From: a virus
Taxonomy: Duplodnaviria; Heunggongvirae; Uroviricota; Caudoviricetes
DNA: 64,000 bases
Strand: one strand, 5' to 3'
IMG/VR virus record: IMGVR_UViG_3300018414_000006
Location: 1 to 64,000 of that record
In this document: in pieces, positions 4,757-8,146 of the stretch
Position numbering within the stretch: the first letter of the stretch is position 1
Layout of the letters: each line of letters begins with the position of its first letter
Made by a program: the position numbers and the translations under genes
The notes under the pieces: generated by a model
Told to the model about the DNA's origin: nothing
The model's database searches: none
The model's input: only the letters and a program-made list of their open reading frames with translations

Positions 4757-5029
4757 GTGAAACGAACCCTTCTTGTTGAGAAAGATCCTGATTCCTGCTA
4801 TGGCGCTACGGTATTAGGATTATCCGGATGCTACACATATGGAAACTCGATTGAAGAACTATGCATAAATGCAAAACAGGCGATTCGTTCTCATGTGGAA
4901 ATTATGAGTCAGTGCGATTCTGAAATAGATAATTTGTTTTTGGAATCGGGAATCGAACATTGGAAAAACTGTTTTGATCAGACTTCTCTCATAGAAGTAG
5001 ATGTGAACATTGACGATCTCAAAAATTAA
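4757..5029 (+). CDS. HicB-like (UPF0150) antitoxin-fold protein
   Basis: VEKDPDSCYGATVLGLSGCYTYGNSIEELCINAKQAIRSHVE resembles the HicB N-terminal domain (xEKDEDGGYVAxxPDLPGCxTQGDTLEEALxNAKEAIE). It begins with GTG. Confidence 0.4.
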   Translation: MKRTLLVEKDPDSCYGATVLGLSGCYTYGNSIEELCINAKQAIRSHVEIMSQCDSEIDNLFLESGIEHWKNCFDQTSLIEVDVNIDDLKN

Positions 5030-6680
5030 CATGGCTACTCAAAAACAGTATAATTCTGACAGCATTGAAACTTTACGCTTTCCTGATTCCATTCGAAGAA
5101 ATCCTTCTATGTATCTCGGAAGTGTTGATGCTGACGGTGTGTGGCTTTGCGTAAGAGAATTACTAGATAATGGTCTTGATGAACATCTGGCAGGACGAAA
5201 TGATTCAGTGCATTTTCATGCGGACAATGATGGATCTTTTTGGGTTCTGGATTCTGGACAGGGTGTTCCTCAAGGAGTTAAAAATTATACTACTAACATT
5301 GGTGGTAAAGAAGTAAAACATTCAATGCCCACAATGCAGGCAGTGTTCGGAGAACTTCATACCTCTGGTAAATTTCGAGATGATGCTTACGCTGTTTCAG
5401 TCGGCACACATGGCGTAGGTGCGAAGGGAACTAATGCAACGTCAGATTTTTTTGATGTTCATACATTCTACAAAAATAAATGGTATTCGATTGGTTTCAA
5501 AAAGGGCAAAATTACATCTTCTGTAAAAGAAACCAATGCACCTGTTTTGTGGAATGGTACAAAAGCATCACAGGGAACAGTTATTCACTTCAAGCCAGAT
5601 GCTACTATTTTCACTGCAAAATCCTTCGCACCTAGCAGGATTGTAGAGTGGTCGGAAATCATGGCATATCTGAATCCGGGATTTCGAATCACTGTCAGTT
5701 CTTCAAAAGGAAAGAAGCAATTCTTTTCACGCAAAGGGACTACTGAATACGTCGCACAACGTATGCTCAAGCTGAAAACAGAAGGCGAGCGAACCCTGTT
5801 TGAATATCATGATTCACTTGCGGATATTGTTGTCGCTTTTACAAATCACGATGGTTTTGAAATACGTGGATTTACTAACGGGTTGAATAATAGCCAGGGT
5901 GGCAAGCACGTCGATTCCGTGGTCGGTGCTTTGTACAAAGGGTTGAGTCCTTATATTAAAACTCGCAAGGTACGAGAATCTGGCAAAGTAAAAACTGTTC
6001 CAGTATTTAAAGAAGCGGATCTTAAGGAAGGTCTTGTTGGATTGATTAATGCAAAGTTGCACAAAGCACAATTCAGTTCTCAGGATAAAGCTCGTTTGAC
6101 AGATGATCGTGTCGGAAAAGATTTTGAAGAAACCGTGACTAAAGCCACACTTTCCTTTTTCAGGGAAAACAAAGCTATGGCACTTCGTATCTGCGAACGT
6201 GCTACCAAACTGAATGAGCTTAAAGGTAAGTTCACTCTAAGCAAAAAAGCTGCTGCTACACTTAATGCTGTCAAAAGAAATGGTCTTCCTGCAAAATACG
6301 CACCCTTTAATTCTGCAACTAAAACAGCAGACAGAGAACTTTTTCTTGTGGAAGGCGATTCGGCAGGTGGTTGCTTTTTGGGCAATACACAAATTCGTCT
6401 TAGTGATGGAAGCATTATTTCTTTTGAGGACTTAGAATCCAATAAAAACTTTCCAAAAATTGGTATATCTTGGGATATTGATAAATCACAATTTCTTGAT
6501 ACTGAGTTGAAAGACGTGCGTATTACTAAATACGCACGGCAATTGATTGAACTCACATTTGAAGATGGATCTACTGTGACTTGCACTCCGGATCATCAAT
6601 TTTTAACGGAAAACAGAGGATACGTTGAAGCACAACATTTATGTAGTGACGATATCATACAGCAATACCGGCAGAAATAA
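5010..6680 (+). CDS. Topoisomerase II large subunit (T4 gp39/GyrB-like): N-terminal part fused to a 102-aa N-terminal split-intein fragment
   Basis: GHKL ATPase motifs ([16 protein letters not shown]) run through the TOPRIM motif EGDSAGG. Then come intein block A ([14 protein letters not shown]) and block B ([10 protein letters not shown]), followed by a stop. The intein fragment spans 6372..6677. Confidence 0.85.
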   Translation: [556 protein letters not shown]

Positions 6681-6856
6681 GTTCTAATGTGGAAATATTG
6701 TTGTGCCGTAACAATGTCCTTATCGTAAGCAATACAAAATTTCTTATACCATTTCTTGTTCTTGCTCTTAACTGCTATTGCTCGCATCTTAGGATAGTCG
6801 TTCATAGTTTTATTTGGTTGAGGGTGACAAGACATACAACGAAATAAAATTAACAA
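6596..6856 (-). CDS. possible small ORF in the 176-bp gap between the split-intein halves (TTG start; the MSCHPQP... or MNDYPK... form from an internal ATG may be the real one)
   Basis: The only minus-strand ORF that does not overlap a stronger + strand gene. It is Cys/Lys-rich, with no recognisable motif. Its position matches where free-standing endonuclease genes sit in other split-intein loci. Confidence 0.15.
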   Translation of the reverse strand: MLILFRCMSCHPQPNKTMNDYPKMRAIAVKSKNKKWYKKFCIAYDKDIVTAQQYFHIRTYFCRYCCMISSLHKCCASTYPLFSVKN

Positions 6857-8146
6857 ATGAGAATCGTAAATAAACGTAGAATAGAACTACAGAACCCAGT
6901 TCCTGTATACGATCTAACGGTGGATGATTATCATAATTTTGTTTTAGCTAATGGTGCTGTTGTGCATAATAGCGCAAAAGAAGCTCGTTATCAATTTCAG
7001 GCAGTTCTTCCCCTAAAAGGAAAAGTTGCAAATGCTCTAAAAATGGAACAGTCTAAAACTCTGGAATCAGAAGAAATTATCAATATTCTGGCAGCGATTG
7101 GTTATGATATAAAAGCAGCAGATCCATATGCGCGTTTGTCAGTTGGCAAAATTATCTGTCTGGCTGATCCTGATCCTGATGGCCCATTTATCGGAAACAC
7201 GTCAATTCTTATGCGTCCGCCTGGCGCTTTTGAGGGTATTTATAACAAGACTCTTACTATCGAAGAACTGGCCAACGCCAATACTGCTTTTGAAGTACCC
7301 GTGTGGTCTGGTGGCAAACAGATATGGGCATCCGCCAGTGCAAGTTTTATCAAAAATGTAGACCAGATTGTTGCTCTGGAAATTGGTAAAACCAAATTCA
7401 AGGTGGATCTCAATCACAAGTGGATGTGCCTCAATACCAATTCTCTGAAGGGTCGTGAAGTAACGCCTTTCAATGATAATCTGGTGTATGTGAAAGCGAA
7501 AGATCTGCGTGTTGGTGATCGTGTGTTTATGCCATTTAACAATAATAGCAAAAAACCTTCGGAAGTGGATTACAATACGCGATTAGGCTATGCGCCTGTT
7601 TCCAAAATGCGAATTCAGAAACTTGATGAACCTGTACCTGTCTATTGTCTCAATGTACCTCGTTATCATCATTTCATTCTTCCTTCTGGAGTAGTTTCAA
7701 GTAATTGTCACATCAACAGTCTTTTGCTGGCACTGTTCTACAAATATCTTCCAGATCTTTTCACACGAGGAATGATATATGTTTCCGCTGCACCAGAATT
7801 CTATGCAATTCATAAAGGCAATCTGGTAACAGGCGACAGACTTTCTGTGATCAGTGACAAGCTTAAAAAAATTGGAGCATCTGAAAATACACCAATAGTT
7901 CACATTAAAGGCTGGGGAGGAATCAACGCTGACTTGATGCGTATCTTTGCGATGAATCCATCATCAAGAAGACTTATTCAGATAAGAGCTATAGAAAAAG
8001 AAGATCGTGTTGAGTTTGTTAAGCTCATGAATGAAGATGTCGAATTTCGAAGAGAACTTTTTAATCTTCCAATAAATGCAGTCAAAGGATCAGTCAGCAA
8101 AGCAGGAATTATTTCTGCAAAGAATCTTTCTGAAAAGGTGAAATGA
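6857..8146 (+). CDS. Topoisomerase II large subunit (T4 gp60/GyrB C-terminal-like): 38-aa C-terminal split-intein fragment plus C-terminal extein, with a second internal intein
   Basis: [39 protein letters not shown] gives blocks F and G. [24 protein letters not shown] continues GyrB TOPRIM ([25 protein letters not shown]). DPDPDG is followed by an insert, then [18 protein letters not shown]...[11 protein letters not shown] (GyrB: DADVDGSHIRTLLLTFFYR...GHVYIAQPPLY). Confidence 0.85.
   Translation: [429 protein letters not shown]
7184..7705 (+). other. Second, contiguous mini-intein (174 aa) between the TOPRIM DPDPDG motif and CHIN; class-3-like signature
   Basis: The N-terminus [14 protein letters not shown] is paralogous to [14 protein letters not shown] but starts with Pro. 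Block B DLNHKW supplies His plus Trp. Block F [13 protein letters not shown] has Cys where intein 1 has Asp (VYDLTV). The C-terminus is GVVSSN with +1 Cys. Confidence 0.55.

Follow-up and report, generated by a model that had tools for sequence, protein, structure and literature searches.

The topoisomerase II locus of the window

The DNA analysed here, positions 1 to 64,000 of the Caudoviricetes record IMGVR_UViG_3300018414_000006 (hereafter the window, meaning the whole 64,000-nucleotide stretch), is part of a myovirus genome in which the gene for the large subunit of topoisomerase II is divided between two open reading frames (ORFs), the first ending in the N-terminal fragment of an intein and the second beginning with the C-terminal fragment. 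The window has a G+C content of 38.4%, carries nearly all of its genes on the plus strand and codes for a tail sheath, a connector, a prohead protease, an NAD-dependent ligase, an SNF2-type helicase and a two-gene topoisomerase II, for whose genes the nearest cultured relative is the Ralstonia jumbo phage phiRSL1. The window proteins P0001 and P0121 lie on a 119,460-bp metagenome contig of the Joint Genome Institute (JGI). The features of the locus, with lengths in amino acids (aa) and E-values after the profile names, are the following.

5031 to 6371, plus strand: N-extein, 447 aa; GyrB-like ATPase, transducer and first TOPRIM motif, with the C-terminal end EGDSAGG
6372 to 6680 including the TAA stop, plus strand: N-intein, 102 aa, CFLGNT...QQYRQK; block A with Cys1, block B TPDH and an N4-like segment
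6681 to 6856, no strand: gap between the intein halves, 176 bp; no forward ORF; endonuclease remnant and the region 5' of the C-intein start
6695 to 6805, minus strand: endonuclease 5' remnant, about 37-43 codons, MNDYPKMRAIAVKSKNKKWYKKFCIAYD..., internal Met ATG at 6805; nuclease domain deleted
6857 to 6970, plus strand: C-intein, 38 aa; blocks F and G; Pfam PT-HINT residues 3-39
6971 to 7183, plus strand: C-extein part 1, Ser+1 and TOPRIM segment; colinear with phiRSL1
7184 to 7705, plus strand: second mini-intein, contiguous, 174 aa, PFIGNT...GVVSSN followed by Cys+1; residues 110-283 of ORF2; Pfam Intein_splicing 7.9e-14
7706 to 8146, plus strand: C-extein part 2, GyrB C-terminal domain and stop; Pfam DNA_gyraseB_C 7.8e-6
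8148 to 9653, plus strand: partner subunit, GyrA/gp52-like topoisomerase II; Pfam DNA_topoisoIV 3.5e-72, PHROG 551 7.9e-82

Translation of the ORFs recovered both of those reported in the first-pass annotation, at 5010..6680 and 6857..8146 on the plus strand. The extent of ORF1 to 6680 stands, but its start is almost certainly the ATG at 5031 and not 5010: the database gene call is 549 aa long, and the N-termini of homologues (MATK.../MAKT...) begin there. The N-extein matches Pfam DNA_gyraseB (5.8e-19) as well as HATPase_c and is 65% identical to residues 6-451 of phiRSL1 GyrB, while C-extein part 2 could be aligned to phiRSL1 as far as residue 824. PHROG 551, the family of the partner subunit, is annotated 'DNA topoisomerase II'. 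No second copy of the topoisomerase large-subunit gene is present within the window.

A split class 1 intein within the TOPRIM motif

The N-intein is exactly 102 aa long (6372-6677, with the stop codon at 6678-6680) and directly follows EGDSAGG, its Cys1 being residue 448 of ORF1 counted from the Met at 5031; the C-intein is exactly 38 aa long (6857-6970) and heads ORF2, after which TOPRIM resumes at Ser+1. These sizes and placements are those that had been claimed from the sequence at first pass. Alignment of the exteins to GyrB rejoins the halves colinearly with phiRSL1: once the 102 and 38 aa are removed in silico, the product is 838 aa long, and its residues 4-817 align with residues 6-824 of phiRSL1 GyrB in one segment at 61% identity. 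Because the joined exteins align as a single segment, the insert is precisely bounded and in frame. The insertion point, EGDSAGG/S (the slash marking the junction here and below), is uninterrupted in six homologues, namely phiRSL1, P0002, P0003, P0004, P0005 and P0008, of which P0002 is 74% identical to the window; the Ser+1 of the window corresponds to Ser or Thr in homologues uninterrupted at this point.

When the fused fragments were searched against the PDB with phmmer, the best match was the split intein NrdJ-1 (E 2.4e-9), followed by a bacterial intein-like (BIL) domain, the Npu and Ssp DnaE inteins (about 1e-6; Npu 1.2e-6), Pho RadA and Mtu RecA, with 25 intein or BIL chains in all at E <= 0.01. 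An alignment of seven inteins was made from the fused fragments, Npu DnaE and five other topoisomerase II split inteins; the Npu DnaE sequence used is consistent with the PDB alignment. The fragments match known split inteins block for block. The proposed resemblance to the DnaE split inteins in size and layout is also borne out, the fragments measuring 102/38 against 102/36 in Npu DnaE with the break at the same alignment column, in the usual endonuclease-insertion loop between blocks B/N4 and F.

The positions invariant in the seven aligned inteins include C1, T6, T72, H75, D121, N129, F130, G135 and the terminal N140. Block B reads TPDH, and the C-intein carries the motifs VYDLTV, YHNF and VVHN/S, the penultimate His being present in all six topoisomerase II split inteins. 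A nucleophile occupies the +1 position throughout (five of the topoisomerase II inteins have Ser, that of locus L005 has Thr and Npu DnaE has Cys), and the set of class 1 catalytic residues is complete in the window intein. Natural split inteins of the DnaE kind are known for charge segregation, with an acidic N-half and a basic C-half. Here the N-intein has a net charge of -6 and the first 12 residues of the C-intein one of +3, the ranges across the topoisomerase II split inteins being -6 to -12 for the N-intein and +2 to +4 for the head of the C-intein.

These observations, together with the endonuclease remnant and the related loci described below, point to a genuine, naturally split class 1 intein between EGDSAGG and S in the TOPRIM motif of a phiRSL1-like myovirus, probably fractured by an antisense endonuclease that was later deleted and with halves that would splice in trans. 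We assign this reading a probability of roughly 0.8.

Recurrence of the split in related loci

ORF1 was searched against 5.8 billion proteins, and N-half sequences were taken from the top 120 homologues. The search returned many proteins of 520-565 aa covering 97-99% of the query, and every one of the 17 N-halves examined ends in an N-intein. Correspondingly, the C-halves that matched in a search with ORF2 are headed by a C-intein. The N-inteins of the ORF1 search lie at three sites, all of them in a stretch of about 25 residues.

Site a, junction EGDSA/C: P0014, P0018, P0030, P0040, P0056
Site b, junction EGDSAGG/C: window, P0026, P0010, P0011
Site c, junction LPLKGKIMN/C: P0037, P0045, P0046, P0083, P0095, P0097, P0105, P0091, P0110

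A fourth junction, EGD/SAGG, occurs in P0172, P0185 and P0187, which came from the ORF2 search. P0185 (MDO8640901.1) is from a Nitrosarchaeum metagenome-assembled genome, and its only NCBI annotation is 'toprim domain-containing protein'.

Five loci besides that of the window could be followed at site b.

L003/L004 (P0026 and P0125): minus-strand gene of 389 aa between the halves
L006/L007 (P0176, found on at least 24 contigs): minus-strand gene of 396-408 aa between the halves
L010/L011 (P0160): minus-strand gene of 419 aa between the halves
L008/L009 (P0140): 109-bp gap between the halves, no gene
L005, 1419-5068 (P0011 and P0123; also P0010 and P0122): N-intein running in frame into an HNH domain, ORF of 771-776 aa; the C-intein gene overlaps its stop

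All five agree with the window in site and break, and their C-inteins begin with a conserved M(R/K)(I/V), at extein identities to the window of 34-55%; the split has thus been kept in evolution and is no isolated lesion. L005 is of separate interest as a case of another endonuclease and another way of splitting at the same EGDSAGG/C site.

Further inteins were observed in this group of genes. A contiguous intein in the ATPase domain (AVSVG/C...N/THG) is carried by the N-halves P0091 and P0110 and by the L008 and L010 genes, and precomputed Pfam annotation places an intein that bears an HNH_3 endonuclease domain in the GyrA-like partner of L008 (6227-8662, 811 aa).

With ORF1 as query, no related loci were found in viral contigs, and none of 50,697 deposited phage genomes has a record of the same split. 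Two candidate matches were rejected: gp252 of Bacillus phage G is a GyrB without an intein, and a record labelled 'Enterococcus phage' is a bacterial gyrB.

The gap holds the remnant of an antisense homing endonuclease gene

The gap between the halves is 176 bp long (6681-6856), as previously stated. The minus-strand ORF that reaches into it (6596..6856) had been dismissed as doubtful at first pass; it is not noise, and its codons 18 to about 55 are the 5' remnant of a homing endonuclease gene. When three endonuclease N-termini were combined into a profile and all 1853 six-frame segments of the window were searched with it, the remnant alone was picked out (E 3.5e-12, the runner-up standing at 0.56), and no other endonuclease parts were found anywhere in the window. 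Against residues 1-41 of the L003 endonuclease (389 aa) the remnant shows 47% identity, and M1, R8, A11, K17, W19 and F23 are invariant when it is aligned with four full-length endonucleases. In three relatives the full-length endonuclease gene occupies the same place in the same orientation as the remnant.

A search of this ORF for HNH or GIY-YIG folds had been suggested at first pass; the Pfam and PHROG matches of the relatives indicate neither of these but an endonuclease of the DUF7487/TnsA-like kind. The full-length L003 protein matches Pfam DUF7487 (E 1.4e-34) and TnsA-like_N; the intervening genes of L006/L007 and L010/L011 have the same matches in precomputed Pfam annotation, and among PHROG families the relatives' intervening genes match those with the annotation 'homing endonuclease', at 1e-17 to 1e-24. 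Another possibility considered was that LILFRCMSCHPQPNKT, the beginning of the minus-strand ORF, closes an HNH motif. There is no HNH match in Pfam or PHROGs, and the stretch lies 5' of the endonuclease start codon and is intergenic in relatives, so that the HNH reading was dropped.

At the DNA level, window positions 6720-6853 align with 4087-4219 of L003, a span that takes in the endonuclease start, a divergent spacer and the AAAATTA before the C-intein start; in L003 the end of the endonuclease gene and the tail of the N-intein gene have 53 nt in common. Because the gap keeps the 5' end of the endonuclease gene, is homologous to L003 and lacks the remaining parts, we read it as the scar of a deletion of about 1 kb in which the endonuclease was lost from approximately codon 40 to its end. 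Since relatives hold the full gene and the window only its remnant, the locus represents a 'fractured gene' at the endonuclease-lost stage.

Continuity and expression of the two halves

The window derives from the single JGI metagenome contig, and a frameshift or chimeric join could in principle have created both the stop and the gap in a gene that is really continuous. A separately assembled Logan contig, SRR35107084_148912, is nevertheless 100% identical over 671 aligned bases (window 6330-7000) that span the gap. Moreover, the 102 and 38 aa make up a complete mini-intein with nothing missing, the gap holds the endonuclease remnant in the position and orientation seen in relatives, and the same architecture is repeated at no fewer than five further loci, which come from other samples. 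We therefore regard an assembly or sequencing artefact as very improbable.

Translational recoding, by which ribosomes would bypass or shift frame over the gap so that a single polypeptide with an unbroken intein results, has a precedent in the 50-nt bypass of the homologous T4 gene 60. The gap in the window, however, is 176 nt long with stop codons in all three forward frames, including an in-frame TAA two codons 5' of the 6857 ATG, and ORF1 and ORF2 lie in different frames, which together argue against read-through between the halves. The gap also has no significant RNA fold (z = -0.36), and the start codon of the C-intein is conserved in relatives that have an antisense gene of about 1.2 kb in the gap. 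The chance that recoding joins the halves is accordingly close to negligible. A search of the gap returned no Rfam match.

On the plus strand of the gap, neither a sigma-70-like promoter nor an intrinsic terminator was predicted; the only promoter- or terminator-like site nearby, at 6994-6966, belongs to the minus strand, and the region has fewer such sites than expected by chance. Since the halves lie on the same strand with no predicted plus-strand terminator or promoter between them, co-transcription is the simplest inference, and the two halves are probably co-transcribed. It had been pointed out that no Shine-Dalgarno sequence precedes the 6857 ATG (AAAATTAACAA-ATG), and this is correct. 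The special puzzle that had been seen in it does not persist, because ORF1 also starts without one (AAAAATTAAC-ATG) and an SD-like motif is found in only 23 of the 62 crude ORFs of the window.

Selection on the intein and the case for a functional element

Comparison of the window with L003 or L006 gave synonymous divergence (pS) of 0.78-1.1 and nonsynonymous divergence (pN) of the intein parts of 0.24-0.48; because synonymous sites are saturated, we report pN against pS and no dN/dS. The pN of the intein parts is no higher than that of the exteins, and the identities are in keeping.

Window against L003: C-intein 66%, N-extein 55%
Window against L006: C-intein 55%, N-extein 34%

Given that the catalytic residues are kept and the intein has diverged no more than the exteins, this pattern favours selection that still acts on splicing, as well as a horizontal spread of the element between distant hosts. 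Furthermore, the five closest extein relatives (P0002, P0003, P0004, P0005 and P0008) are without the split intein, a sporadic distribution which suggests that it behaves like a mobile element.

It might be argued that the intein halves are a relic no longer able to splice, in which case the two polypeptides would associate non-covalently, as T4 gp39/gp60 and Aeh1 NrdA do through added tails, or the large subunit would be non-functional. The homing endonuclease has already decayed, a Shine-Dalgarno-like sequence present in relatives is missing from the window, and phage topoisomerase and ribonucleotide reductase subunits that are split, unligated and yet working are documented (bioRxiv 10.1101/2022.08.31.505936; PMC3045599). 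Against this, the class 1 catalytic residues are all intact and both ORFs are open, and the intein parts are conserved at least as well as the exteins over deep divergence. An unremoved 140-aa HINT domain between EGDSAGG and S would, moreover, occupy the TOPRIM active site. Loss of the endonuclease is in itself harmless to splicing, as the gp41-7 and DnaE inteins illustrate (PMC2677866). We consider a splicing-dead relic unlikely.

Several observations do weigh against our preferred reading of a trans-splicing intein. The match of ORF1 to Pfam Intein_splicing (3.5e-5) reaches 24.1 bits, below the gathering score of 35.8 bits, and a single-sequence AlphaFold2 model of the fused fragments was uninformative (mean predicted local distance difference test score, pLDDT, 35). 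The Logan contig comes from a separate assembly of run SRR35107084, possibly of the same sample as the window, and its reads are not necessarily independent. Three relatives carry a Shine-Dalgarno-like TAGGGAA, TAGGAAAGGA or TAAGGTAA 5' of the C-intein start; as the window is without this sequence and is 6 nt shorter there, translation of the C-half could be weak or lower in the window. Lastly, none of the relatives found to have the same split exceeds 75% identity, and at that distance a recent inactivation of the window intein may have escaped the comparison.

A second intein in the same enzyme

ORF2 contains a second intein, which had not been mentioned at first pass. It lies after the metal-binding DxDxDG motif of TOPRIM, between ...ADPDPDG and CHINSLL..., and its boundaries follow from intein-free homologues that read DADPDG-SHIN (for example DADPDGSHIN in P0060) or DPDPDG-HHIN. 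This intein begins with Pro1 and has a Cys in block F (VPVYCLNV) in place of the Asp of class 1 inteins, seen in the Pho RadA intein and in the VYDLTV of the first intein. Class 3 inteins are defined by having no Cys at position 1 and a Cys at C2:4 (PMC7891396). Judged by eye from motif spacing, NHKW places a Trp two residues past the block B His; C1:5 is Ser (VVSSN) and not the Thr of class 3, with the same Ser seen by eye, unaligned, in the relatives examined. A residue other than Thr at this position of the triplet occurs in 4.6% of class 3 inteins (PMC7891396). By the definition in that work, the second intein (7184-7705) is class 3-like, with a putative WCS variant of the WCT triplet. It is also found in phiRSL1, P0002, P0003, P0004, P0005 and P0008; since phiRSL1 and all five closest homologues possess it, it is older and more fixed in the phiRSL1-like clade than the split intein.

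Inteins in the 64-kb window number at least three. The prohead protease gene (ORF 52388-54373) carries one of 391 aa at 52772-53944, AWAGCPVH/CFTGDTKI...VIVHN/CEHDNE, with a LAGLIDADG endonuclease domain and with Pfam matches to Hint_2, LAGLIDADG_3 and Intein_splicing.

Other features of the window

Immediately 5' of the topoisomerase gene, a 90-aa ORF (4757-5029) has a Pfam match to HicB-like antitoxins in the precomputed annotation of the Logan contig. Besides its type II enzyme the window encodes a type IB-like topoisomerase, a 557-aa protein (32444-34117) matching Pfam 'Eukaryotic DNA topoisomerase I, catalytic core' at 1.8e-19. A 261-aa protein (2856-3641) has a duplicated unit of about 28 aa that includes the AT-hook-like motif RGRGRPPK (QEETPVRRGRGRPPKNAPTARRTREVE, twice), and a very acidic C-terminal tail. 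The 9-mer CTAACGTAA occurs in seven copies, all on the plus strand, at 140, 9782, 10344, 10436, 17748, 19739 and 22836, against an expectation of 0.22. At least three of these copies (140, 9782 and 17748) precede a gene start by about 10-20 nt and have the sequence context CCTAACGTAA(A/C)GGA, and the 9-mer is probably a phage promoter or regulatory motif.

A model for the history and splicing of the locus

From the relatives we infer the following history. A free-standing gene for a homing endonuclease, lying on the opposite strand and coding for a DUF7487/TnsA-like enzyme of the PD-(D/E)xK superfamily, would have invaded a mini-intein at EGDSAGG/S in the loop that normally accommodates the endonuclease domain. 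The invasion would have produced a 'fractured gene', and in the phage of the window the endonuclease would later have been deleted down to its first 40 or so codons.

The steps of expression, association and splicing can be proposed from established intein chemistry combined with the sequence. The halves would be translated separately, as a 61.1-kDa polypeptide (N-extein and N-intein) and a 48.0-kDa polypeptide (C-intein and C-extein with the second intein). The HINT fold would form by association of the N-intein, which is acidic, with the C-intein, whose head is basic, and class 1 chemistry would proceed from a thioester at Cys1 to acyl transfer onto Ser+1. Cyclisation of the terminal Asn and an O-N shift would then leave a normal peptide bond between Gly447 and Ser. 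The second, class 3-like intein would splice in cis, and the predicted mature subunit, of 664 aa and 73.4 kDa with an intact TOPRIM, would pair with the GyrA-like subunit encoded at 8148-9653. Unspliced precursors should be inactive, because the inteins interrupt the TOPRIM Glu motif and the DxD motif.

It is tempting to go further and to suggest that the Topo2L of phiRSL1-like phages hosts an uncatalogued family of split class 1 inteins (102 + 38 aa, Gly-1, Ser+1) driven by an antisense DUF7487/TnsA-like endonuclease, that TOPRIM is a multi-site hotspot for selfish elements, and that, in the phage of the window, two mechanistically different splicing reactions in the maturation of a single essential enzyme (class 1 in trans, class 3 in cis) may provide a post-translational gate, for instance a redox-sensitive one. 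This wider proposal is tentative, and we would place it somewhat on the doubtful side. If true, it could offer a new orthogonal split-intein pair for protein engineering.

Comparison with known systems

The kind of element described here is already known: naturally split inteins and fractured genes occur in phage replication enzymes, and metagenomes hold many members of this family. The locus does not overturn current understanding. What it adds is a new host enzyme and insertion site for the short list of natural split inteins, the list from which the most useful protein-ligation tools (DnaE, gp41-1 and NrdJ-1) stem. The topoisomerase II family comprises several divergent members in a compact 102/38 format with Ser+1, and these are consequently variants ready for testing. 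In the searchable literature, a scope outside which the intein catalogues (InBase, the Pietrokovski lists) fall, no split intein in a phage topoisomerase II or GyrB is described apart from a passing mention of the metagenomic 'MGS5' discussed below. The earlier statement that none had been described at this site thus stands for that literature, but split topoisomerase halves can be found by the dozen in the sequence databases, at three or four sites close to one another.

The closest conceptual precedent is the gene-breaking model of Dassa et al. (2009, PMC2677866), whose step III is loss of the endonuclease, with gp41-7 as the example locus. As in those fractured genes, a phage DNA-metabolism gene is broken in the window at the loop where inteins accept an endonuclease, with the half-genes adjacent on one strand, and the window resembles gp41-7 in standing at the endonuclease-less stage. 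The eight enzyme types of that study do not include the topoisomerase II large subunit (PMC2677866). In the Dassa loci all three ORFs, including the free-standing endonuclease gene between the halves, lie on the same strand; the window has only the remnant of about 40 codons between its halves, and its relatives have a complete gene on the opposite strand, an arrangement previously unreported. The Dassa endonucleases are GIY-YIG or Vsr-like, in contrast to the DUF7487/TnsA-like enzymes of the window's relatives, and a recognisable endonuclease remnant survives in the window, unlike in the Dassa loci. The window locus may therefore be viewed as a snapshot of the model for split-intein origin, in which the endonuclease has been lost and its first 40 or so codons kept.

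With Npu and Ssp DnaE the window intein shares class 1 chemistry as predicted from its residues, a 102-aa N-intein, a C-intein of 36-38 aa, an identical break and the acidic N-half and basic C-half. Identity is nevertheless 24%, and the DnaE halves reside at distant loci and use Cys+1, whereas those of the window are 176 bp apart with Ser+1 and a penultimate His. NrdJ-1 (PDB 8ubs, 9omb), which likewise belongs to class 1 and is naturally split in a fractured gene of phage origin, is the closest solved structure by sequence. It differs in its host enzyme, ribonucleotide reductase, and in its low overall identity; the activity of NrdJ-1 has been measured, while that of the window intein is predicted from sequence.

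Among topoisomerases, the metagenomic Topo2L 'MGS5' has intein halves that, like those of three relatives of the window, flank a PD-(D/E)xK-type endonuclease (Hint - VSR endonuclease - HintC); it belongs to a Campylobacter-phage-like clade and not to the phiRSL1-like one, and bioRxiv 10.1101/2022.08.31.505936 mentions its homing intein in passing. In T4, according to the same source, the HNH endonuclease MobA splits Topo2L at residues ~466-473, with element-encoded tails, a 50-nt bypass, no intein and no ligation. The parallel drawn at first pass between the window and T4 gp39/gp60 is a loose one, apt insofar as TOPRIM of the same protein is split in both by a mobile cassette (gene 39/mobA/gene 60 in T4) whose endonuclease has decayed. 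It does not extend to the position or the mechanism. T4 gp39 reads EGDSAIGY...PLRGKVLN...ITGLVLGEK before its element-derived tail, and gp60 has an element-derived head and then ...AIMTDADHDG; because gp39 ends past ITGLVLGEK and gp60 resumes before DADHDG, the T4 break lies about 55 residues downstream of that in the window, between the two TOPRIM motifs. The T4 endonuclease is an HNH enzyme encoded on the same strand, and the window has intein halves in place of the tails and no bypass, so that its locus is not a MobA split of the T4 type. A separate coincidence is that the class 3-like intein of the window and the other phiRSL1-like phages is inserted (junction at window 7181-7186) at the exact codon boundary of the T4 gene 60 50-nt bypass (L014 2803-2852; T4 DADHDG/LGSIYPSLL), so that two selfish inserts of very different kinds share one boundary. 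The TOPRIM of phage topoisomerase II emerges as a hotspot for selfish elements, with split inteins at three or four sites in about 25 residues, the T4 MobA break a little further on and a class 3 intein at the bypass codon.

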